Under the pieces are notes generated by a model. It ran no database searches. It saw nothing but the letters and a program-made list of their open reading frames with translations, and was not told where the DNA came from. The translations under genes and the position numbers were made by a program. From a bacterium (lineage in GTDB: Bacteria; Actinomycetota; CALGFH01), in assembly GCA_046727955.1 (NCBI GenBank), contig JBKPDO010000166.1:1440-65439 (forward strand): 64,000 nucleotides of DNA. The letters run 5' to 3'. The first letter of the stretch is position 1. The number at the start of each line of letters is the position of its first letter. Below, piece by piece: positions 18,302-30,080 of this stretch.

Positions 18302-19084
18302 ATGGACAGGACAGCACTCCAAAGGGCGAGGCCGCGGCGGGTCTTCTCCGCGGTGCTGGCGCTCGGCCTCGCGGCCCTGCTCGTGCCCGTGTGGGCGGGC
18401 GCGGCGGCGGCGCGCGAGAGCAGGAAGGCCGGCAGCTACCGCCTCGCCGTCGGGTTCGGGGACGAGCCCGCGTACGCCGGCCAGAAGAACAGCGCGCAGG
18501 TGCTCATCAGCGACGCCGCCGGCAAGCCAGTGACCGACCTCGGCGACACGCTGAAGGTCATGGTGATGATGGGCAAGCAGACCGTGGATCTCTCCCTGGA
18601 GCCGTTGTTCGAGGTCGGCGAGTTCGGGACGCCCGGAGACTACCGGGCGTTCTTCATCCCGAGCGCGCCGGGCAGGTACACCTTCCATCTCCATGGCAAC
18701 ATCAAGGGCCAGACGGTCAACCAGGACTTCACCTCCTCGCCCACGACCTTCTCGGACGTCCAGGACCCGGCACGCGCCGCCTTCCCCAAGCTGGACCAGC
18801 CGACCACCGGCCAGGTCGCCCAGCGCCTCGACCGCGAGGCGGCCCGGCTCGGCACCGCCGTGCAGGGCGCGATGGCGGCCAGCGGCAGCGCCGACCGGCG
18901 GTCGCGTGACACCGCCGGCCAGATCAGGCTGCTGACCATCATGGGTGCCATCGGGTTCATCCTCGGGCTGATGAGCGCGATCCTCGGTGGGAGCGCGCGG
19001 CGCATCGCACGGCGCGCGGCCCGCCGTGCCGCCCAGCCGCCGAGCGCTGAAGCTGAAGAGGTCCGCGCCACTGTGGAGGTCTGA
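18302..19084 (+). CDS. Secreted/membrane-anchored Ig-like (FixH/YtkA-like) protein typical of copper loci
   Basis: Signal peptide, YRLAVGFGDEPAYAG, PGDYRAFFIPSAPGRYTFHL, C-terminal TM helix; precedes a CopD remnant. Confidence 0.6.
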   Translation: MDRTALQRARPRRVFSAVLALGLAALLVPVWAGAAAARESRKAGSYRLAVGFGDEPAYAGQKNSAQVLISDAAGKPVTDLGDTLKVMVMMGKQTVDLSLEPLFEVGEFGTPGDYRAFFIPSAPGRYTFHLHGNIKGQTVNQDFTSSPTTFSDVQDPARAAFPKLDQPTTGQVAQRLDREAARLGTAVQGAMAASGSADRRSRDTAGQIRLLTIMGAIGFILGLMSAILGGSARRIARRAARRAAQPPSAEAEEVRATVEV

Positions 19085-19089
19085 CGCCG

Positions 19090-19647
19090 ATGTGGCGCAG
19101 GACGGCGGTGGCTGGCGTCCTGCTCAGCCAAAGGGCCACTGGCCAGACCAGGGTGTCGGCCCCCCCGGGCCACACCGAGGGCGCGGCGCCGGCGCGGTCG
19201 GGCGGCGCCGGATGGCTGTTCGCCCTCGGTGTGGCCTCCGGCGGCGGCCTGCTGGTGCATGCGCTGGCCAGCCACGCCGCCGCGCCCTCGCCGGTGCGCT
19301 GGCTGCGGCGGACGGTCCGCGGGGAGCTGCGGCGGACGGTCCGCGGGGAGCTGTGGCTCGCGGGCGAGGTGCTGCTCGCCGCCGCCCTGCTGAGCAAGCT
19401 ACCACCAGGCACAGACGTGGAGTCCCACGCGGCCGGCGCCACCGCCGCGGGGACCGGGCCGGCGGCCGCCCTCGGCCTGCAGGCGAACGGCACCGACTAC
19501 ACCACCACGGTGCGCGTAACCCTGCAGGCGACACCGGGCGCCGCCGGCCCCAATCGCTTCCTGGCCAATGTCGAGGGGCCTCCGAAGAGGTGACGGTGCC
19601 GCTGCGGCTCCAGGTTGCGGCCCCCGCAGTCCGCTAGAGCGGCGCCC
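19090..19647 (+). pseudogene. Internally deleted CopD-type copper resistance gene
   Basis: HALASHAAA and RGELWLAGEVLLAAALLSKLPP are CopD-like; RRTVRGEL duplicated at the junction; frameshifted tail EVTVPLRLQ. Confidence 0.6.
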
Positions 19648-20090: not shown

Positions 20091-23000
20091 ATGACCTCGC
20101 CGGTCGACTTCCTGCTCCTCGGGCCGCTCGAGGCGCGCCAGGCCGGCCGCCCCCTGCGGCTCGGCAGCATCAAGCACCGCATGCTGCTGGCCAAGCTGCT
20201 GGTGCACGCAAACCAGGTCGTCTCCACCGACGAGCTGATCGACACCGTCTGGGGCGACCAGCCCCCGCCGACCGTTCGGCAGTCGCTGCAGAACCACGTC
20301 GCCTCGCTCCGCAGGGCGATCGAGCCCGGCAGCGTCGCCAACCCACCCCGAACGCTGCGCACCCGCGACCCCGGCTACCTGCTGCAGGTCGATCCGGACC
20401 AGCTCGACCTGCACCGCTTCCGCCGGCTGCTCGACGAGGGCCGCGGCGCGCTCGATTCCGGCGAGCCGGCCACGGCGGTGCGGCTGCTGCACGAGGCCCT
20501 GTCGCTGTGGCGCGGCCCGGTCCTGGCCGACGTCGTGGCCGCCGGGGCGGCCTGGCCCGAGCTGGTCGGCATCGACGAGGAGCGGGTCGCGGCGCTCGAG
20601 GTGCGGCTCGAGGCCGACCTCACCCTCGGGCGTCACCCCGATCTGATCGGCGAGCTAGAGGGCCTGGTCCAGGTGCACCCGCTGCGCGAGCACCTGCACG
20701 GGCAGCTCATGCTCGCGCTGTACCGCTCTGGCAGACAGGCGGACGCGCTGGCCGCCTACCGGGCCGCCCGCCGCATCCTCGTCGACGAGCTCGGCATCGA
20801 GCCGAGCCTGCGCCTGCAGCGGCTGGAGCAGGCGATCCTCGCCCAGGACCCGGCGCTCGAGCTGCTCGGCCCGTCCGCGGCCGAGGCCGAGCCCGGGATC
20901 CTGGCGCTCGACCGGGCTGCGGCCGGCGAGCCCGCCAGGGCGGCCGCGCCCGGCGGGGCCGAGCGCAAGCTGGTCACCGTGCTGTTCGCCGAGGTCGACG
21001 AGCCGGCTGCCGAGCCAGGCGAGCGCGACCCCGAGGACGTCTCCAGCATGCTCGAGCGGCATCTCGAGCGGATGCACACCGAGATCTTCAGCTTCGGCGG
21101 GGTGGTAGAGCACGCCATCGGCGGCACCATGATGGCCGTCTTCGGCGTGCCACAGACCCGCGAGGACGACCCCGAGCGCGCCGTGCGCGCGGCGCTGGCC
21201 ATCCGCGACGCGCTGAGCGGCCGGGCGGAGCTGCGCATCGCGGTCGGCACCGGCGAGGCGCTCGTCACCCCTGGCGGCGGGCCCACGCGGGTCGCCGGCG
21301 ACCTGGTCACCGCCTGCGCCCGCCTGCAGCAGGCCGCCCCCGCCGGCGCGGTGCTGGTCGCGGAGGCGACCGAGCGCGCCACTTCGCGGACGATCAGCTA
21401 CGGGCCGGCGACCATGCTCGTGCTGCCCGGCCGCGCCAAGCCCGTGACCGTGTGGAGCGCGCTGGAACCGCGCAACCGCACCGGGCTCGAGACGCTCGCC
21501 GCCCGCCCGGTGCCGCTGATGGGACGGGCACGGGAGCTCGGCGCCCTGCTAGAGGCGTTCGAGCGGGTCCGGTCCACCGGCAGCCCGCGGCTGGTGACCC
21601 TGGTCGGACCGGCGGGCATCGGCAAGAGCCGCCTGCTGGCGGAGCTGTGGCAGTCGCTGGAGGCCGACCGCGACCTGGTCGCCTGGCGCCAGGGCCGCTC
21701 GCCGCCCTACGGCGAGGGGATCACCTTCTGGGCGCTCGGCGAGATCATCAAGGCAGAGGCCGGCATCCTCGAGAGCGACACCACCGACCGCATCGACCGC
21801 AAGCTCGCGCAGGCGGCCAGCTACGCCCTGGCAGGGATCCCGGACGCGGCCGCCTGGGTCACCGCGCACCTGCGCGTGCTGCTCGGCGGCAGCGACGAGC
21901 GCTCGCAGCCGCGGGCGGGCCGCCAAGAGGAGGCGTTCGCCGCCTGGCGGCGCTTCCTGCACGGCCTGGCCACCCGCCGTCCGCTGGTGCTGGTCGTCGA
22001 GGACCTGCACTGGGCCGACGACGCCCTGCTGGAGTTCCTCCAGAGCCTGCTCGACGGCGCCGGCAGCCCGCCCGGCTCACTGCCGCTGCTGCTGGCCACG
22101 ACCACGCGGCCGGAGCTGCTGGAGCGCCGGCCCGGCTGGGGCGGCAGCGGCCCGTCGACCACCATCAGCCTCGAGCCACTGCCGCGGGACGACACCGTCC
22201 GCCTACTCGGGGCACTGCTCACCCACCACCGGCTGCCCGGCGCGGTCGCGCCCCGCCTGGCCGCCGCGGCGGGCGGCAACCCGCTGTTCGCCGAGGAGTA
22301 CGTGCGCATGCTGCGCGACCGCGGGCTGCGCACCGAGGAGCTGAAAAACGCGGCGGCGGGCGAGCCGCCGGCGATGGGGGCGCCCGAGCTGCCGCTGCCG
22401 GAGACCGTGCACGCGATCGTCGCCGCCCGCCTGGACGCGCTCTCCGTGGCCCAGAAGGCGGTGCTGCACGACGCCGCCGTCCTCGGCCGGATCGCCTGGA
22501 CAGGTGGCCTGGCGGCCGTGGGTGACCACGACCGCGACAGTCTGCAGGCCTGCCTCGACCACCTCGAGGCCAAGGAGTTCCTCTACCGGGCACGCCGCTC
22601 CTCGGTGGCCGGAGAGCCGGAGTACGGCTTCCGGCACGTGCTCATCCGCGACGTGGCCTACGGCCAGATCCCGCGGGCGCAGCGGGCCGACAAGCACCGC
22701 CGGGCCGCGGCCTGGCTCGAGTCGCTGTCAGCCGACCGCGTCGAGGAGCGGTCCGAGCGGCGCGGGGCCGCCCGCGCGGAGCTGCTGGCCCACCACTACG
22801 GCAGGGCGCTCGCCTTCGCTCACGCCTCGGGTCAGCCCAGTGACGAGCTGGCCACGCACACCCGCCTGGCGCTGCGCGACGCCGCCGACAGGGTGACCGC
22901 GCTTGGCGTGCATGCCACCGCCGCCCGCTACTACGCCCGCGCCCTCGAGCTGTGGCCGGAGCGCGACCCCGGCCACGCCGAGCTCGAGTTCCGCACCGGC

Positions 23001-24242
23001 CGCGCCCTCTACCACAGCGAGGGCAGCGGGGAGAAGCTGCTCGCACGAGCGCGCGACGGGCTGCTTGCCGCCGGCGACTTCGAGCGCGCGGCCGAAGCCG
23101 ATATCCTGCTCGGCCAGCACGCCTGGGAGCACGGCCAGCACGGCGCGGGCGATCACGTCGAGCGGGCCGTGGCCCTGGTAAAGGACGCGCCGGCATCGCG
23201 CTCCAAGGCCGCGGTGCTGCGCGGCCGCATGATGCACTCGATGGTCGCCGAGCACCACACCGAGGCGATCGCGCTCGCCCGTCAGCTCCTGGAGATGGCG
23301 GTCCAGCTCGGCATGCTGGACATCGAGGCCGCCGCGCTGGAGGTGATCGGCGGCGCCAAGGTGCTCGGCAGCGGCGATCCCAGCGGGGTGGCCGACCTGG
23401 AGCGCAGCATTGCCATCTACGAGCAGCTCCCCTCCCTCAACCCGGCCGGCGCGTACATCAACCTGGCCGAGATGCTTGCGGCGCTCGGCGACCTGCCGCG
23501 CTGCTTCGCCACCTGGGCAGCCGCCTGGCGGTGCGTAGAGCGCTTCAGCGTCGAGCACCGGCTGCGCTGGATGGAGTTCGAGCGCGTGGCCGAGCACTAC
23601 TGGACCGGGCGCTGGGACGAGGCGCTGCGCAAGGTCGAGTCGCTGGTCGCCGAGTCGGCGGCCGCGCGCGGGCACGTCCTGGAGTGCCGCTGCCTCATCT
23701 GGCGCGGCCGTATCCGCCTGGCCCGCGGCGAGACATCGATGGCCGTGGCCGACTCGGTCGCCGCGCTCGAGCTGGCCCGGGCTTCCGGTGAGCCGCAGGA
23801 CCTGGACCCCGCGCTGGCTTTCGGCGCCCGCGCCCTGCTCGCCGCCGACCGGGCCGAGGACGCCGTCCCGCTGGTCGACGAGCTGGTGAAGGTCGTGGAC
23901 GGGCGGCTGCTCAAGGCGACAGTCGGCAGCGACCTGTCGCTTGCGCTGGTCGCCCTGAACTATCCGGTCGAGGCCCTGGACGGCGTGCTGCCGTCACGCT
24001 GGCTGGAGGCCGCTCGCGCTCTGCTGGCCGGCGACATGCGGCGGGCGGCTCAGCTCTATGCCGCCATCGGCTCGCGCCCGGACGCGGCCGCGGCCCACCT
24101 GGCCGCCGCGCGCCAGCTGACGGCCGCGCGCGAGGCCGGTGCCAGCAGGTCAGAGCTGGCCGCCGCCCTCGGCTTCTACCGCGAGGTCCGCGCGAGCGCC
24201 TATCTCCAAGAGGCCGAGGACCTGCTGTTCTCCCTGGTCTGA
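20091..24242 (+). CDS. SARP (wHTH-BTAD) + cyclase-like + AAA/STAND ATPase + TPR regulator
   Basis: LLGPLEA, LREHLHGQLMLALYRSGRQADAL, ERKLVTVLFAE, GPAGIGKSRL, VVEDLHWAD, TPR-like helical tail. Confidence 0.92.
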   Translation: MTSPVDFLLLGPLEARQAGRPLRLGSIKHRMLLAKLLVHANQVVSTDELIDTVWGDQPPPTVRQSLQNHVASLRRAIEPGSVANPPRTLRTRDPGYLLQVDPDQLDLHRFRRLLDEGRGALDSGEPATAVRLLHEALSLWRGPVLADVVAAGAAWPELVGIDEERVAALEVRLEADLTLGRHPDLIGELEGLVQVHPLREHLHGQLMLALYRSGRQADALAAYRAARRILVDELGIEPSLRLQRLEQAILAQDPALELLGPSAAEAEPGILALDRAAAGEPARAAAPGGAERKLVTVLFAEVDEPAAEPGERDPEDVSSMLERHLERMHTEIFSFGGVVEHAIGGTMMAVFGVPQTREDDPERAVRAALAIRDALSGRAELRIAVGTGEALVTPGGGPTRVAGDLVTACARLQQAAPAGAVLVAEATERATSRTISYGPATMLVLPGRAKPVTVWSALEPRNRTGLETLAARPVPLMGRARELGALLEAFERVRSTGSPRLVTLVGPAGIGKSRLLAELWQSLEADRDLVAWRQGRSPPYGEGITFWALGEIIKAEAGILESDTTDRIDRKLAQAASYALAGIPDAAAWVTAHLRVLLGGSDERSQPRAGRQEEAFAAWRRFLHGLATRRPLVLVVEDLHWADDALLEFLQSLLDGAGSPPGSLPLLLATTTRPELLERRPGWGGSGPSTTISLEPLPRDDTVRLLGALLTHHRLPGAVAPRLAAAAGGNPLFAEEYVRMLRDRGLRTEELKNAAAGEPPAMGAPELPLPETVHAIVAARLDALSVAQKAVLHDAAVLGRIAWTGGLAAVGDHDRDSLQACLDHLEAKEFLYRARRSSVAGEPEYGFRHVLIRDVAYGQIPRAQRADKHRRAAAWLESLSADRVEERSERRGAARAELLAHHYGRALAFAHASGQPSDELATHTRLALRDAADRVTALGVHATAARYYARALELWPERDPGHAELEFRTGRALYHSEGSGEKLLARARDGLLAAGDFERAAEADILLGQHAWEHGQHGAGDHVERAVALVKDAPASRSKAAVLRGRMMHSMVAEHHTEAIALARQLLEMAVQLGMLDIEAAALEVIGGAKVLGSGDPSGVADLERSIAIYEQLPSLNPAGAYINLAEMLAALGDLPRCFATWAAAWRCVERFSVEHRLRWMEFERVAEHYWTGRWDEALRKVESLVAESAAARGHVLECRCLIWRGRIRLARGETSMAVADSVAALELARASGEPQDLDPALAFGARALLAADRAEDAVPLVDELVKVVDGRLLKATVGSDLSLALVALNYPVEALDGVLPSRWLEAARALLAGDMRRAAQLYAAIGSRPDAAAAHLAAARQLTAAREAGASRSELAAALGFYREVRASAYLQEAEDLLFSLV

Positions 24243-24243
24243 G

Positions 24244-24385
24244 GGCTTGTTTGCATTCGGGGGGGAGCCCGAGACAGCTCCCCCCCGAACCCCCCACCGG
24301 GCACCTCGACGTGACCCCTGGGTCGGGGGTCAGCACCGCGATCGGGCAGGGTCGCCGTGCCGCGGATCACCATTGCAACCAGGCC
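24244..24385. mobile_element. MITE-like element, copy A (one internal unit)
   Basis: Ends ggcttgtttgca...tgcaaccaggcc; body closely similar to 42062-42367; inserted at the SARP stop codon. Confidence 0.75.
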
Positions 24386-24559
24386 CCGAGGCGTGCGCTG
24401 CCTCGCGCCGTCGCCAGAGCCAGTCCGCTTGAGGCCCAGATGGGGGACATTGCGTAGGTAGTTCTTGCGAGGTGCACTCAGGACCCATGGGGAGTACAAC
24501 TGGCTGAGAGAGATCGATACCACTCTCTTGTCGAACCGGTCAGAGGAAGGCTGGACCAT

Positions 24560-25126
24560 ATGCCTGAGACGCCTCGCGAACGGCTTCTCGAGACGGCCAC
24601 GAACCTCCTGTACAGGGAGGGCATCCAGACCGTCGGGATCAACCGTATCGTCGCCGAGGCGGAGGTGGCGCTCATGACCCTCTACCGCCAGTTCGGGGAC
24701 AAGGACAACCTGGTCGCCGCTGCGCTCGAGCACTGGAGCACGCAGTGGCTGCACTGGCTCGCCGACCACGTCGACCGCCGCGGCGACGATCCCGAGGCCC
24801 GCTTCGCTGGCCTGTGGGACGCGCTCGAGGAGTGGTTCACGAGCGAGGGCTTCCGCGGCTCCTTCATCGCCAGCGCCGCTGTCGAGCTGCGCGGCGAGCC
24901 GGAGCACCCCGCACACCGAGTGATCGAGGGACATCGGCTGGCAATGCGGCACCTGCTGGAGGATCTCGCCAAGGCCGCCGGGGCGCGCGACCCGGACGAG
25001 CTGGCGACCCATCTGCAGGTGATCGTCGACGGCGCCACCTCTGTCGCCATGGTCGACCGCACGCCCACCCCCGCTCGCAATGCGCGCGCGCTGGCCGGCG
25101 CGGCGCTGGCGGTGAGCGCCAGCTAG
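24560..25126 (+). CDS. TetR/AcrR family regulator (NemR/ComR-like)
   Basis: RERLLETATNLLYREGIQTVGINRIVAEAEVALMTLYRQFGDKDNL. Confidence 0.93.
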   Translation: MPETPRERLLETATNLLYREGIQTVGINRIVAEAEVALMTLYRQFGDKDNLVAAALEHWSTQWLHWLADHVDRRGDDPEARFAGLWDALEEWFTSEGFRGSFIASAAVELRGEPEHPAHRVIEGHRLAMRHLLEDLAKAAGARDPDELATHLQVIVDGATSVAMVDRTPTPARNARALAGAALAVSAS

Positions 25127-25563
25127 CGCCGGCCAGCGTGGCGGCCGCCCTCGCTGCTGGCCGACAGCGCCACCAGCGTCAGGTGCCGAGCGATGCGCGC
25201 CACCGCCGGCTGGCGGTCGATCAGCGCGCCGACCACGGCGCCCTCGTAGAGCACCTGGAGCTGGCTGGCCAGCGTGGCGGGATCGTGCACACCCGCCGAG
25301 CTGGCAAGGCCCTCGAGCAGGTGCCGCAGCGAGCGGCGCTGCTCGGCCACGGCCTGGTGGGCCGGATCGGCGGCGTCGCGCAGCTCTGGCGCGGCGCCCG
25401 CCAGGAACGACCCGTCGAAGTCGTCGCTGGCGAACCATTCCTCGAGCACGTCCCAAAGGGCGAGCAGGCGCTCCGTGGGCGTGTCACCGCGGCGGTCGAG
25501 CTCCTCGGCGAGCCACTCGGGCCAGTCCCCACGGGTGGGCTCCTCTACCTCGTCTCGTCTCAC
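25123..25563 (-). CDS. TetR C-terminal-domain-only protein (no HTH), paralog of the adjacent TetR
   Basis: RBS aaggggagagg + GTG; WLAEELDRRGD/LWDVLEEWF/LASQLQVL align with the TetR C-domain; stops overlap at CTAG. Confidence 0.8.
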   Translation of the reverse strand: MRRDEVEEPTRGDWPEWLAEELDRRGDTPTERLLALWDVLEEWFASDDFDGSFLAGAAPELRDAADPAHQAVAEQRRSLRHLLEGLASSAGVHDPATLASQLQVLYEGAVVGALIDRQPAVARIARHLTLVALSASSEGGRHAGRR

Positions 25564-25753
25564 CCTCTCCCCTTGGGCCGATGAGTCGGTAGGAGCCGGG
25601 CGGTCCCAGCAAATCTGTCAAGGCTCGCTTCATCGTCGTATTCCAGGAGCGTCGGCGCAAGACCGTACAGCCGAACAGATGACTCAGAGACCGGCACCGG
25701 CGCCCAAGTGGGGATAGTTTCCCGAAATTTTGCTTCCACGTCATGAAATACTC

Positions 25754-25784
25754 TTGACAGATGATAGAGAGAGATCGCTATCAT
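25754..25784 (+). promoter_or_regulatory. Promoter TTGACA-19-TATCAT with palindrome atgatag-N10-ctatcat
   Basis: Read directly, upstream of the small ORF at 25837. Confidence 0.7.
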
Positions 25785-25836
25785 TACCCATTCGCGCCGG
25801 CTGGGAGACCGGCGGTGGAGGAAAGGGAGGCCCCCC

Positions 25837-25959
25837 ATGCGCGACTCCAAGCACTGGCCCATCCGCTTCGTGCGGTACGCGTACCTGACGGTGATTTCCA
25901 TGGGCGCCGCCGCGCTCCTGGTCGCGGGCTTCAGCCAGCCCAACTGGATGTGGTGGTGA
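25837..25959 (+). CDS. Unannotated 40-aa single-TM peptide (MRDSKHWPIRFVRYAYLTVISMGAAALLVAGFSQPNWMWW)
   Basis: Strong RBS ggaggaaagggagg, own promoter, GC3-rich codons; below the ORF-track cutoff. Confidence 0.7.
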   Translation: MRDSKHWPIRFVRYAYLTVISMGAAALLVAGFSQPNWMWW

Positions 25960-26062
25960 CATCCGGCCATCTTGAAGTCCGAGGTGGCGGCCCCAACGGG
26001 CCGCCACTCGGCGTTCCGGCCCATCCGCCCACGCTCCCGGCCCATCCGCCCACGGTGACCCG

Positions 26063-26133
26063 CGAAGACCTCCCTTGAGCACGTCCCTCGAAGACCTCCC
26101 CCTCGAAGACCTCCCCCTCGAAGACCTCCCCCT
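26063..26133. repeat. Tandem repeat 15 bp x3 (cgaagacctccccct) plus one degenerate copy
   Basis: Read directly; upstream of the second STAND gene. Confidence 0.9.
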
Positions 26134-26214
26134 GGCTGGACCGACGACCTAGGCTTGTAGGCTGCAAGGGCTGCAAGCCACGTCCGCCGCAGAAGCTGTC
26201 ACCGAGGGACGCAA

Positions 26215-29200
26215 TTGGCCGATCCCCAACCGCCCGGCGAACAGCCGAGCCACGCCGAGCGCAAGCTCGTCACCGTGCTGCTCGCCGAGGTCGACGAGGC
26301 GGCCGGGAGCTGGGACGAGCCCGACCCCGAGGACGTCGACTGGGCGCTCACCGGGCACGCCGCTCGGGTCCATGACCAGGTCCGTCGCTTTGGCGGCGTG
26401 GTCGAGCACCGGCTCGGCGGCCGCACCCTGGCGGTGTTCGGGCTGCCGCGGACCCGCGAAGACGACCCCGCGCGGGCGGTGCTGGCCGCGCTTGCGATCC
26501 GCGACGCCCTCGGCGGCCCCGCCGGCGCCGCGCGGCCGCGCCTGGCGGTCTCGACCGGCATGGCGCTGGTACGGCTCGGCGGGCAGGTCCCCAGCGGCCA
26601 GCGCGTGCTCGGCGATCCCATCGCTATCTGCGCGCGCCTGCTCGAGGTGGCCCCGCCGGGCGCCGTGCTGGTGACCGAGCCGACCCTGCGCGCCAGTGAG
26701 CGCGCCATCCCCTACGGCCCGGCCAGCCTGGTGACCCTTCGCGGCGGGGAGCCACAGGCGGTGTGGAGCCCGCTCGCCATCTCGCCGCCCGGCCAACGCC
26801 GCTTCCCGCCGCTGGTGGCCCGGGACGCCGAGCTGGCCATTCTGGTCGAGCGGCTGGCGCAGGCGCGCTCGGCCCGCTCGCCGCGGCTGGTGACCCTGCT
26901 CGGGGCGGCGGGCATGGGCAAGAGCCGCCTGCTGGCCGAGCTGGCGGCGGCCGTCCAGGGCGGCCCCGAGCTGGTCGCCTGGCGCCAGGGTCGCTCTTCT
27001 CCGTACGGCGCGATGGCGCTCGGACCGCTCGCCGAGGTCGTCAAGGCCGAGGCCGGGATCCTCGAAAGCGACAGCGCCCAGGAGGTGGAGCGCAAGCTGC
27101 TCGCCACCGCCGAGCGGGTGCTGGACGGTCATAGCGCGGACGTAGGCCGCACCGCCACCCACCTGCTCACGCTAGTTGGGGCCAGCGCGGCGGGCAGCGA
27201 CACGGCCCAGGTTCAGCTGGACGACGGCGACCGCCGCGAGGAGATGCTCGCGGCCTGGCGCCGCTTTCTCTATGCCCTGGCGGTCAGGCGCCCCCTGGTG
27301 CTCGCGATCGAGGACGCCCACTGGGCCGGCGACGCGCTGCTCGACTTCCTCGAGAGCCTGGTCGACCCGGAGATCGCGGCGCAGGCGGGCCCGACGGCGC
27401 TGCTGGTGGTCGTCACCGCCCGACCGGAGCTGGCCGAGCGCCGGGCTGGCTGGGGGCTTGCCGAGAAAGGCGTCGGCAGCGTGGTCCGGCTCGAGCCGCT
27501 GCCCCCCTCCGCCATCGCCGGGCTGCTGGCGGCCCTGCTGGAGCACCATGGCCTGAGCGGGCGAGGGCGGACCGCCCCGGAACTGCTCGAGCGGGTCGGC
27601 GGCAATCCGCTGTTTGCCGAGGAGTACGTGCGCATGCTGCGCGACCGCGGGCTGCGCACCGAGGAGCTGAAAAACGCGGTCGCGGGCGAGCCGCCGGCGA
27701 TGGGGGCGCCCGAGCTGCCGCTGCCGGAGACCGTGCACGCGATCATCGCCGCCCGCCTGGACGCGCTGCCATCTGACGAGAAGGCGGTGCTGCAGGACGC
27801 GGCCGTCCTCGGCCAGGTCGGCTGGGTGGGCGCGCTGGCCGAGATCGGCGAGCGCGAGCGCGCCACCCTTCAGGCGCGGCTGCTGCGGCTGGAGAGCAGG
27901 GAGCTGCTGCAGGTGAGCGACCGCTCCCAGGTCGCCGGCGAGGTCGAGTACGCCTTCCGCAACGTGCTGGTGCGGGACGTGGCCTACGACCAGACCCTCC
28001 GCGCCGACCGGGCACGCAAGCATCTCAAGGTGGCGACCTGGCTGGAGCGGCTCGGCGGCGACCGCGCTGGCGAGCGTGCCGACCTGCTCGCCTATCACTA
28101 CCGCGCCGCACTGGACCTGGGCCGCGCGGCCGGGCTCCAGGTGCCTGGCCTCCAGCTGCGGGCCAGGGCCGCGCTGCGCGAGGCCGGCGACCGCGCCGCC
28201 GCCCTTGGTCTGCACGCAAGTGCCGCCCGCGCCTACACCGAGGCGGTGGGGCTGTGCGCGCCCGATCCCAGAGATCCCGAGCGGCCCGCCCTGCTGCTGC
28301 GGCTCGGCCGGGCTCGCTGCCGCGCCGAGGGCGCCGGCGAGGAGGAGCTGAGCGCCGCGCGGGACCTGTTCCTCGCCAGGGACGAGCCGGTGCCCGCTGC
28401 GGAGGCCGAGATGCTCCTCGGCGAGCTGGCGTTCCTCGGCGGGCGCGGCGACGAGCGCGCGGCGCGGCTGGATCGCGCGCTTGCGCTGATCGGCGGCGCG
28501 GCGCCATCGCCCACCAAGGCCGCGGTGCTGCGCGGCTGCATGTTCCACCTCGCCATGGCCAACCGGCACGCTGAGGCGCGGGCGGTGGCGGCCGAGGTCC
28601 TCGAGCTGGCGCGCCAGCTCGGCCTGCGGGACTTCGAGGCGGACGCGCTCGGGACCATCGGGCTGGCGCGGGTCGACGCCGGCGACCCAGGCGGTGTGGC
28701 CGACCTGTCGGCCGCTATCGCCGCCTTCGACGCGCTCGGCACGTCCGGATCGGTCGCCTGGCACCTGAATCTGGCCTATGCGCTGGCTGCGCTGGGCGAC
28801 CTCGCCGGCTGCCACGCCGAGCTGGCGGCGGCCGCGCGCGGCGCCGAGCGCTTCGGCCTGCTGCGCGCCGCCCGCGCGATCAGGCTCCAGCGGGTCGCGG
28901 AGTACTACTGGACCGGTCGCTGGGACGAGGCGGTCGCGGTGGTCGACGTGTTGGTGGCCGGCTCGCCCGGGGAGGAGCGCCACTACCTGGAATGGGAGTG
29001 CCGGCTGTGGCGGGGCCGCATCCGCCTGGCCCGCGGCGACCTGGACGGGGCGCTGGCCGATTCGGTGAGGGCTCTGGAGCTTGCGCGCCGCGCGGCCGAC
29101 CTGATGGCGCTCAACCCCGCCCTTGCCTTCCGGACGAGCGTCCTGCTTGCCGCGGGCCAGGTGCCGGAGGCTCGCGAGGCGGTCGCCGAGCTGCTGGCGA

Positions 29201-29499
29201 GCCTGGGCGGCAGCGTGCTGGCGCCGGAGATCGGCGCCGACCTGGGCAATGCCCTGGCAGCCCTGGGTCTGGGGACCGAGGTGCTCGATGAACGCGGCAT
29301 CCCGCCGTCGCCCTGGCTGGAGGCGACCAGGGCACTGGCCAGCGGCAGGCCGGACCGCGCCGCCGAGCTGTACGACCGCATCGGGGCTGTCCCCGAGGCA
29401 GCCACTGCGTGGAGAGGCGGGGGGACTCCGAACCGCGGAGGGACCCAGGCCCCCCCGCGAACCCCCCCAGGGGGGGCGGGCTCTGCCCGCGATTCCTAG
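26215..29499 (+). CDS. Cyclase-like + AAA/STAND ATPase + TPR protein, paralog lacking the SARP head
   Basis: ERKLVTVLLAE, GAAGMGKSRL, IEDAHWAG, GNPLFAEE; C-terminus runs into a G/C-rich repeat. Confidence 0.88.
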   Translation: MADPQPPGEQPSHAERKLVTVLLAEVDEAAGSWDEPDPEDVDWALTGHAARVHDQVRRFGGVVEHRLGGRTLAVFGLPRTREDDPARAVLAALAIRDALGGPAGAARPRLAVSTGMALVRLGGQVPSGQRVLGDPIAICARLLEVAPPGAVLVTEPTLRASERAIPYGPASLVTLRGGEPQAVWSPLAISPPGQRRFPPLVARDAELAILVERLAQARSARSPRLVTLLGAAGMGKSRLLAELAAAVQGGPELVAWRQGRSSPYGAMALGPLAEVVKAEAGILESDSAQEVERKLLATAERVLDGHSADVGRTATHLLTLVGASAAGSDTAQVQLDDGDRREEMLAAWRRFLYALAVRRPLVLAIEDAHWAGDALLDFLESLVDPEIAAQAGPTALLVVVTARPELAERRAGWGLAEKGVGSVVRLEPLPPSAIAGLLAALLEHHGLSGRGRTAPELLERVGGNPLFAEEYVRMLRDRGLRTEELKNAVAGEPPAMGAPELPLPETVHAIIAARLDALPSDEKAVLQDAAVLGQVGWVGALAEIGERERATLQARLLRLESRELLQVSDRSQVAGEVEYAFRNVLVRDVAYDQTLRADRARKHLKVATWLERLGGDRAGERADLLAYHYRAALDLGRAAGLQVPGLQLRARAALREAGDRAAALGLHASAARAYTEAVGLCAPDPRDPERPALLLRLGRARCRAEGAGEEELSAARDLFLARDEPVPAAEAEMLLGELAFLGGRGDERAARLDRALALIGGAAPSPTKAAVLRGCMFHLAMANRHAEARAVAAEVLELARQLGLRDFEADALGTIGLARVDAGDPGGVADLSAAIAAFDALGTSGSVAWHLNLAYALAALGDLAGCHAELAAAARGAERFGLLRAARAIRLQRVAEYYWTGRWDEAVAVVDVLVAGSPGEERHYLEWECRLWRGRIRLARGDLDGALADSVRALELARRAADLMALNPALAFRTSVLLAAGQVPEAREAVAELLASLGGSVLAPEIGADLGNALAALGLGTEVLDERGIPPSPWLEATRALASGRPDRAAELYDRIGAVPEAATAWRGGGTPNRGGTQAPPRTPPGGAGSARDS

Positions 29500-29582: not shown

Positions 29583-30080
29583 ATGCGCTACTCGAGTCCC
29601 AGGCACCTGCCGGATCCGCCGCCGCACGAGTGGGCGGCGCTGACCGGCCAGCCTCTGCTCATCGCCGTCACCATCGTCATCGGTGGACTCCTGGCGACGG
29701 CGCTCACCAGGCACGGCGACTCGGCCGAGACCGATACCGCCGCACCGCCCGAGACCACTGGCGCGCCCCCCAGCCTGCCGCCGCCCACGGCGAGCGCTCC
29801 CGCCGCGAAGCCGGCGCCGGGCGAGCCCACTCCCAGCTCGCCCGCGTCCGGTAGCTCCGCCGTGGGCGGCGGCAACCTGCTCGACAACCCCGGCTTCGAG
29901 GACGACCTCAACGAGATGGACAAGACCATGCCGATGTGCGACCTGCCCTTCACCGGGACACGCGGCGGCACGCCGCTGTTCCTCGGCGGTGGTGGGCTGG
30001 TCGTGCTCGGCACCCTGGCCCTGGTGCTCGCCACCCGCCGCGCCCGCAAGCAGGACAGCGCGGGGGAGCGAGCGGCCTGA
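29583..30080 (+). CDS. Proline-rich membrane protein with LPFTG sortase-like signal, probably internally deleted
   Basis: N-terminal TM, GNLLDNPGFE (CBM-like start), LPFTG + hydrophobic helix + RRARK. Confidence 0.5.
   Translation: MRYSSPRHLPDPPPHEWAALTGQPLLIAVTIVIGGLLATALTRHGDSAETDTAAPPETTGAPPSLPPPTASAPAAKPAPGEPTPSSPASGSSAVGGGNLLDNPGFEDDLNEMDKTMPMCDLPFTGTRGGTPLFLGGGGLVVLGTLALVLATRRARKQDSAGERAA

Follow-up and report, generated by a model that had tools for sequence, protein, structure and literature searches.

Several small membrane proteins act as regulators in bacteria, among them MgrB and SafA, which are paired with PhoQ, AcrZ, which is paired with AcrB, and KdpF. Small membrane proteins are often missed by annotation, and they rarely come with a context that suggests a route to their study. 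Here we describe a protein of 40 amino acids encoded at positions 25837-25959, on the plus strand, of a 64,000-nucleotide stretch of actinomycetotal DNA (the window; GenBank assembly GCA_046727955.1, contig JBKPDO010000166.1, positions 1,440 to 65,439 of the forward strand, GTDB lineage CALGFH01). Its gene stands among TetR-family regulators and large STAND NTPases. On balance, and with moderate confidence, we favour the reading that it is a small integral membrane protein, expressed from its own transcription unit as the TetR-controlled output of this module, and that it is not a precursor.

The protein and its relatives resemble MgrB, SafA, AcrZ and KdpF in their length of 40-75 amino acids, their one or two helices, their conserved short soluble segments, an apparently tight transcriptional control and a place in or beside a regulatory circuit. 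They differ in having no sequence relationship to these proteins, and the regulators encoded beside them are STAND NTPases of the cytoplasm instead of membrane kinases.

In the SHP, XIP and PrgQ systems the signal peptide is found at the extreme C-terminus. The RRNPP systems are defined by five criteria: a propeptide of 10-100 amino acids, its secretion, a receptor of 250-500 amino acids, tetratricopeptide repeats (TPRs) and adjacent genes (PMC10075063). Like the RRNPP, SHP and XIP systems of Firmicutes, the locus has a small open reading frame (ORF) with a basic N-terminus, a hydrophobic core, an aromatic C-terminus and a TPR-like neighbour, and at 40 amino acids its product is within the size range of the propeptides (PMC10075063). 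In contrast to these systems the STAND proteins here have 1094 and 1383 amino acids, outside the receptor range, the phylum is another one, the tail is conserved, the ancestral form appears to have two helices and gene adjacency is not conserved (PMC10075063).

AfsR-type large SARPs combine a SARP domain with a nucleotide-binding oligomerisation domain and TPRs (PMC10936776). The 1383-residue protein of the module is similarly built from a SARP domain, a STAND ATPase and helical repeats, and direct repeats at 21-22 bp are present at the small-gene promoter. It is unlike the AfsR type in that its ATPase is of the AAA_16 family and is preceded by a class III cyclase-like insert, the repeats lie upstream of the −35 element and are separated from the −10 element by 28 bp, and there is a paralogue without a DNA-binding domain (PMC10936776).

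The small gene and its protein family

The small ORF is a genuine, conserved gene. Its product, MRDSKHWPIRFVRYAYLTVISMGAAALLVAGFSQPNWMWW, has the N-terminus MRDSKHWP followed by arginine residues (the N-terminal segment of the short form is MRDSKHWPIRFVR), a single hydrophobic helix of about 19 residues and the tail QPNWMWW. The G+C content at third codon positions (GC3) is 0.95, compared with 0.51 at first and second positions, in a window of 71.5% G+C. A comparable codon-position composition occurs in nine of the 161 window ORFs of 30-60 amino acids; eight of these are antisense within long genes, and the small gene is the sole intergenic one. The first-pass annotation had described the ORF as unannotated, but public gene callers do list it, under the label 'hypothetical protein'. 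The ORF itself and the remaining elements in that description, the promoter TTGACA-19-TATCAT with its palindrome, the ribosome-binding site (RBS), the basic N-terminus, the helix and the QPNWMWW tail, are all present where it had placed them.

The exact peptide, or a variant differing in one residue, is found on about 20 contigs with the same neighbours. More diverged short forms were obtained with HMMER from 1.84 billion representatives and from a metagenome scan. These variants have 40-43 amino acids and tails such as SPNSFIWH, QPAGWWWH, SPNPMIWH, QPAWYWH, QPMTWFWH, SPNSMIWH and TPNSWTWH. In all nine distinct short-form variants the start codon, the RBS and the length of 40-43 amino acids are retained, and the pairwise ratios of non-synonymous to synonymous substitution rates (dN/dS) range from 0.14 to 0.92, all below 1.

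Distant copies of the locus were reached through homologues of a TetR paralogue that lacks the helix-turn-helix (HTH) domain and is encoded next to the small gene; the ORFs at the equivalent site of these copies have 42-74 amino acids and contain SKHW. A profile of all forms (alignment A6) matched 123 clusters, all unnamed or labelled 'hypothetical', about 116 of which contain KHW. Nearly all members have 66-75 amino acids, and they come from soil metagenomes and from metagenome-assembled genomes (MAGs) labelled 'Actinomycetes bacterium'. Contrary to the possibility, raised at the outset, that no conserved homologues would occur in similar contexts, the homologues whose loci were compared share the module context.

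The usual form of the protein consists of a first helix, a basic loop …SPRRLAE.TILRSKHWPSDGIARQ (…RRLAE.TILRSKHWPSDG…), a second helix and the C-terminal motif P-x-x-Φ-Φ-W, more exactly P-[DNST]-[KRGA]-[YWMLF]-[IMVL]-W, after which S, G or H may follow. The invariant features of the alignment are SKHW, the proline before the tail and a tryptophan at the last or penultimate position. The window protein has all the features by which we define the family: SKHW with basic residues, a helix 25-36 residues before the C-terminus, the proline and an aromatic motif ending in W or W-x. Typical tails are PDKYIW, PNKLIWS, PNAWMWG and PDAWMWG, and the largest subfamily reads …LWLVG-PDKYIW, with the proline directly after the helix. 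In four members (P0101, P0115, P0097 and P0113) the C-terminal motif is duplicated, for example as …SPAKMVWATLSPLGMHWS.

The long forms are not artefacts of gene calling, since an RBS precedes helix 1 and there is no start codon near SKHW. The 40-residue form of the window, which begins M-R-D-SKHW, thus belongs to a derived branch from which helix 1 has been lost. The tail QPNWMWW resembles PNAWMWG and PDAWMWG closely and is a variant of the conserved family motif, not a variable pheromone. Scans of short and long forms against Pfam, NCBIfam and PADLOC gave no family match. By these comparisons the family newly defined here, which comprises about 116 sequence clusters from Actinomycetes of soil, is a previously undescribed family of small membrane proteins. 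Among GTDB species representatives the pattern MRDSKHWP, which covers the short form only, gave a single chance match out of frame; it lies at 2185-2241 of L019 (homologous and matching loci are given L numbers), within a GTPase-like gene judged by eye to be of the ychF type, on a low-GC MAG contig. A Tat signal was considered and rejected, as twin arginines are found only in some variants (L017, L031 and L032).

The 13 N-terminal residues of the window protein have a net charge of +3 and the tail is uncharged, so by hand rules the N-terminus should be inside and the C-terminus outside. SKHW would then lie on the basic side, presumably in the cytoplasm. Proline at +1 is unfavourable for cleavage by signal peptidase I, and cleavage of …LWLVG-PDKYIW by this enzyme is therefore not expected. 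The two helices of the usual form, the conserved tail, the invariant SKHW on the basic side and the proline at +1 together favour a resident membrane protein over a precursor. The layout had originally been likened to a signal-peptide-like precursor of a short aromatic peptide. This likeness is lost in the family as a whole, where most members have 66-75 amino acids and two helices, the tail is a conserved motif and proline follows the helix in the largest subfamily.

The transcription unit and its candidate repressor

The proposal that the small gene has its own operator-containing promoter and a strong RBS was borne out; the dyad is conserved, and there is a terminator as well. The −35 element TTGACA (25754-25759) and the −10 element TATCAT (25779-25784), both on the plus strand, are separated by 19 bp. 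The spacer is filled by a 24-bp dyad, ATGATAGAGA-GAGA-TCGCTATCAT (25761..25784, plus strand), which includes the −10 element and is the candidate operator. Its arms of 10 nt (25761-25770 and 25775-25784) are complementary at nine of ten positions around a 4-nt centre, a larger palindrome than the one first noticed. The pattern GATAG-N(0-14)-CTATC has one match in 64 kb, and at least one match was seen in 15 of 100 shuffles. The dyad is conserved in all 14 loci compared, with the right half TC(T/G)CTATCAT retained, and the −10 element is identical in 13 of them, reading TATCTT in L036.

The −35 elements of the relatives are TTGACT, TTGTCA, TTGATT or TAGACA, placed 16-19 bp from the −10 element. 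The 19-bp spacer is confined to the window and its near-identical relatives; in other relatives it measures 16 bp (L017, L027), 17 bp (L018, L020, L022) or 18 bp (L010). The earlier comparison of the 19-bp spacer with MerR-type promoters therefore fails, and no MerR domain was found among the module proteins in any context examined. A consensus promoter scan, which allows spacers of 16-18 bp only, had missed the small-gene promoter.

Downstream of the promoter, a small hairpin in the 5' untranslated region (25795..25814, plus strand) pairs CGCCGG with CCGGCG around the loop CTGGGAGA; hairpins of differing sequence are found at the same position in relatives, judged by eye. The RBS AAGGGAGG (25823-25830, plus strand) is 6 nt upstream of the ATG, and the stretch from RBS to start, (A)AGGGAGGCCCC(T/C)C-ATG, is retained in the majority of relatives, among them L035 with its long form. 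Beginning 20 nt past the stop codon is a GC-rich terminator-type hairpin (25979..26011, plus strand) with the core GTGGCGGCCC-CAAC-GGGCCGCCAC. Among 15 loci checked, 14 have a strong hairpin past the stop codon, varying in sequence, and the fold of the remaining one, L034, is weaker and imperfect. The small gene is thus likely to be monocistronic. A conserved TAGGCT, resembling a −10 element, lies between the terminator hairpin and the start codon of the following STAND gene, which it could serve. A search of Rfam (E ≤ 10) with positions 24000-27000 of the window returned chance-level matches only.

The candidate repressor is a full-length TetR-family regulator of 188 amino acids (24560..25126, plus strand; PF00440, E 2.5e-10), whose orthologues in L020-L027 are 82-89% identical. 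About 40 bp upstream of its gene is a site, GCTGAGAGAGATCGATACCA (24503..24522, plus strand), that has the 11-mer GAGAGAGATCG in common with the dyad, and this 11-mer occurs at only these two places in 64 kb. The core shared by the two sites co-varies from genome to genome: it is GAGAGAGATCG in the window, L020 and L027, GAGATCTCTCTC in L025 and GAGAGTGATC in L036. In L029 a shared core GAGAGA[A/T]AAC was read by eye; a scan for words of at least 8 nt gave no common word there. Such co-variation of both sites is what a single autoregulated repressor would leave behind, with the adjacent TetR as the simplest candidate, and points to repression of the small gene by TetR through the predicted dyad operator.

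In TetR/TetA-type repression a TetR-family repressor acts locally through a palindromic operator at the promoter of an adjacent membrane-protein gene and also regulates itself. The arrangement here is like that of TetR/TetA in several respects. A full TetR gene stands beside the target, the dyad overlaps the −10 element, a related site lies upstream of the TetR gene and, in the classical manner, the small gene and the full TetR gene of L020-L025 are divergently oriented. It is unlike TetR/TetA in that the target is a protein of 40-75 amino acids and not a transporter, the divergent neighbour in the window is the HTH-less TetR and L031 has no full TetR gene.

This HTH-less paralogue (25123..25563, minus strand) has 146 amino acids, TetR_C domains only, its own RBS and a GTG start; its gene and the small gene are divergently oriented. 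Aligned with residues 63-187 of the full TetR, the protein shows 51% identity. A search for its homologues returned 70 proteins, most of them with 104-178 amino acids and no TetR_N domain and about a dozen full-length with PF00440. The truncated TetR is therefore widespread and not a one-off pseudogene, and it is possible that it acts as a heterodimerising antagonist.

Upstream of the −35 element are two direct repeats, GAAATT and GAAATA (25724..25750, plus strand), spaced 21 bp start to start, of which the second ends 3 nt before the −35 element. They form a candidate activator site. The pattern GAAATN{14,18}GAAAT has one match in the window and none in 100 shuffles. A degenerate form of it is found once per locus, invariably at the small-protein promoter and also in the relocated cassette of L020, with a spacing of 21-22 bp in relatives. 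SARP-activated promoters have direct repeats with a periodicity of 11 or 22 bp, the 3' repeat lying 8 bp from the −10 element (PMC10936776). The periodicity of the GAAAT repeats fits that of SARP sites and may indicate a winged-helix activator, possibly the SARP protein of the module.

Some further features were noted around the promoter. Two operator copies are found in L018 (345-400) and L026 (232-290), the second being a perfect palindrome with arms of 8-9 bp about 25 bp downstream of the promoter copy. The dyad of L010 is the reverse complement of the window dyad with one mismatch. In the window the sequences ATCTGTCAAG and CTTGACAGAT (25613-25622 and 25753-25762) form a perfect 10-nt inverted repeat, 130 nt apart, which places a second TTGACA on the minus strand, directed toward the TetR_C gene; in L010 the repeat is not retained. 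Between the HTH-less TetR gene and the small-gene promoter there is a non-coding block (25595-25680) of strong conservation. In L035 and L036 this block, of low GC3, shares the TetR_C reading frame and forms an N-terminal extension, and in the window it is out of frame. A decayed HTH upstream of the truncated TetR was considered and rejected, the resemblance being only at E = 3.4, out of frame in the window and of low GC3 in L035 and L036.

Module context and alternative functions

In the window the gene order is SARP-cyclase-STAND, TetR, HTH-less TetR (on the minus strand), small gene and cyclase-STAND. The first STAND protein (20091..24242, plus strand; 1383 amino acids; matching AfsR and EmbR at E 1e-42) comprises a SARP part (winged HTH and BTAD), a class III cyclase-like domain, an AAA_16 STAND ATPase and helical repeats. 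The second (26215..29499, plus strand; 1094 amino acids) has the cyclase-like domain, AAA_16 STAND ATPase and TPR-like repeats without a DNA-binding domain. The two are 52% identical. The design is unusual in that the SARP-STAND protein and TetR are each paired with a paralogue that lacks the DNA-binding domain.

This set of genes was seen in 12 different contexts, in varying order and orientation and frequently accompanied by CopCD and a YtkA-like protein. The promoter-ORF-terminator cassette of L020-L025 is flanked by the full TetR gene and by the 3' end of the SARP gene, on which it converges. In L031 it follows the HTH-less TetR gene, again converging on the SARP gene, and this is the only context examined in which the full TetR gene is absent. 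The small gene adjoins a STAND gene in the window, L027, L029, L032 and L034-L037, and does not in L020-L025 and L031. Its position between the TetR pair and the second STAND gene, as first described, thus holds for the window, but these relocations tie it to the module and not to the downstream STAND gene specifically. From these comparisons the module appears to be conserved and undescribed, with the small gene a fixed part in the contexts examined and apparently its sole locally evident target. The idea of an undescribed circuit is to this extent supported by the TetR pair and the two STAND proteins, and the signal-peptide-like precursor proposed with it is not.

In L020 (4280-4345 and 5900-6125), and likewise in L025, the cassette has been moved and flipped; what stays behind at the old site is a degenerate dyad with one arm of the hairpin.

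The STAND proteins had been described as STAND-TPR proteins. Pfam TPR_19 and TPR_16 match their C-terminus at E 0.03-0.1, below the cut-offs, and a profile search against the PDB found a designed TPR at E 0.3. An AlphaFold2 single-sequence model of this C-terminus, of low confidence (predicted local distance difference test score, pLDDT, 54.5), consists entirely of helical repeats, and its best Foldseek matches are TPR proteins with template-modelling scores of 0.2-0.44. The TPR nature of the STAND C-terminus is thus weakly supported.

We propose that the small gene is transcribed from a σ70-type promoter as a unit of short 5' untranslated region, strong RBS, 40 codons and hairpin terminator. 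The full TetR would bind the 24-bp dyad over the spacer and −10 element, together with the related site at its own promoter, and would hold the small gene off until released by a ligand. The HTH-less TetR could antagonise it by heterodimerising, and the two GAAAT repeats may be the target of a winged-helix activator, for which the SARP protein is a possible candidate. In the product, the N-terminus with its net charge of +3 would be cytoplasmic, the single helix would cross the membrane and the tail, rich in Trp, would be placed at the outer interface of the membrane. SKHW, the only residues that are invariant, are predicted to face the cytoplasm, and this leads us to suggest, tentatively and at well below even chances, that the protein serves a cytoplasmic module protein, such as the TPR-like sensor of the STAND paralogues, as its membrane-anchored partner or ligand. 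If this wiring is true, the locus would be a compact, testable case of a STAND/SARP circuit shaped by decoy paralogues together with a small membrane protein, synthetic biology in high-GC hosts would gain a defined pair of operator and repressor, and there would be a lead on what large SARP-type STAND proteins sense.

Several observations weigh against the proposal of a TetR-controlled resident membrane protein. The dN/dS of the short forms is fairly high, with a mean of about 0.5, and the peptide diverges faster than its neighbours, with 63-72% identity compared with 71-89% for flanking proteins at the same loci. Topology and non-cleavage were judged by hand rules only, and in the window's own branch the −3/−1 site G-F-S|Q-P is plausible, so that release of the tail could occur there. 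L031 retains the dyad, yet the full TetR gene is absent within 16 kb, and another protein might therefore bind the dyad. The 3' GAAAT repeat ends at 25750 and the −10 element starts at 25779, leaving 28 bp between them compared with the 8 bp of SARP promoters (PMC10936776). Runs X2-X10, labelled 'RNA-Seq' and of METAGENOMIC source, cover 24400-27400 evenly, convergent genes and spacers alike, in contigs that reach 4.7 kb (X4, 4,106 nt; X7, 4,719 nt). Such flat, DNA-like contigs across both strands are not usable as evidence of expression, and a search for a transcriptomic run holding the locus found none.

The main alternative to a membrane-anchored partner is that the protein acts on the membrane itself, and we regard this as unlikely. 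It could be an oligomer like a holin, a viroporin or a type I toxin, or an accessory subunit in a membrane complex, for instance CopCD, tightly repressed by TetR and switched on by the STAND proteins, with no signal back. The operator over the −10 element suggests tight repression, as would suit such an effector, and the Ala/Ser/Gly-rich face of the helix suits helix packing. Two-helix proteins of 66-75 amino acids are within the size range of class II holins, and the CopCD and YtkA-like genes recur beside or inside the module. Against this, the PADLOC, Pfam and NCBIfam scans gave no match and the invariant cytoplasmic SKHW is left unexplained. A dependence of the small gene on CopCD was rejected, because CopCD is a remnant in the window and the small gene is intact.

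It is improbable, in our view, that the protein is a propeptide exported by Sec, from which signal peptidase frees (Q)PNWMWW as an extracellular signal that is re-imported and sensed by the TPR-like domain of a STAND protein, in the manner of an actinobacterial RRNPP, SHP or XIP analogue. The short form does have a basic N-region, a hydrophobic core and, in several variants, small residues at −3/−1 (G-F-S|Q, G-F-A|S and A-L-A|S); the tail is at the extreme C-terminus, and the genes are adjacent in the window to a STAND gene whose product ends in helical repeats with TPR proteins as best fold matches. However, in the common form the basic SKHW loop connects two helices, and many family members have proline after the helix, which in the largest subfamily is at +1 of any possible cleavage site. 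The tail motif is conserved over about 116 clusters and is not pherotype-like, the hydrophobic stretch of about 19 residues has the length of a membrane anchor, and conservation is highest in the cytoplasmic N-terminus, although mere export would not require it. STAND adjacency is not kept, and the would-be receptors are outside the RRNPP size range (PMC10075063).

A version restricted to the window's branch holds that, after the loss of helix 1, the remaining helix became a cleavable export signal, and that pyroGlu-PNWMWW and its …WH relatives are diffusible and read by the TPR-like sensors of the two STAND proteins. We give this little credence; if true, it would amount to genetically encoded peptide quorum sensing in Actinomycetes. 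As it stands, the locus gives no evidence for actinomycete peptide pheromones.

It is very improbable that the ORF is a cis-acting leader peptide of the trp attenuation type, in which ribosomes stalled at the three Trp codons would govern the hairpin at 25979-26011 and through it the read-through into the STAND gene. The three Trp codons are among the last four sense codons, the hairpin follows 20 nt after the stop codon and the next gene is on the same strand. The tails of relatives, however, have one or two tryptophans only (…FIWH, …MIWH and …KYIW), with one tail Trp conserved, and the cassettes of L020-L025 and L031 point at the 3' end of the SARP gene and have no gene downstream that they could control. 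Amino acid conservation, with dN/dS below 1, extends along the whole length, the −10-like TAGGCT lies between the hairpin and the STAND start codon, and no alternative antiterminator pairing stood out in the fold.

Biarylitide-, atropitide- and cittilin-type ribosomally synthesised and post-translationally modified peptides (RiPPs) have an adjacent tailoring enzyme, a P450 or a radical SAM protein. That the small gene encodes a precursor of this kind, whose aromatic C-terminus is cross-linked or modified and then released, would fit the conserved N-terminal part, the aromatic extreme C-terminus, the proline before the tail and a gene of the S9 prolyl-oligopeptidase family 8.5 kb upstream, but is scarcely credible given that no P450, radical SAM, cyclodehydratase, lanthionine or other tailoring enzyme is present in the module and scanned neighbours, that membrane helices are unlike RiPP leaders and that the S9 and M24 genes are absent in L029, L031 and L032.

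Further features of the region

At 19066-19572 and 29583-29957 the window has decayed remains of genes that flank the module in relatives. CopCD is reduced to fragments corresponding to amino acids 214-306 and 422-497 of 578, and the first 110 residues of a 254-residue gene product and a scrap of a 163-residue one are left. A methyltransferase gene of L036 and L037 has no match in the window.

The two STAND paralogues share a tract of about 150 nt with 93-100% DNA identity (22280-22425 and about 27604-27754), which looks like a recent gene conversion. Past the terminator of the small gene, at 26016-26133, are tandem repeats consisting of an 18-nt unit present twice at 21-nt spacing and a 15-nt unit, CCCTCGAAGACCTCC, present three to four times. 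The copy number of these repeats varies among near-identical relatives.

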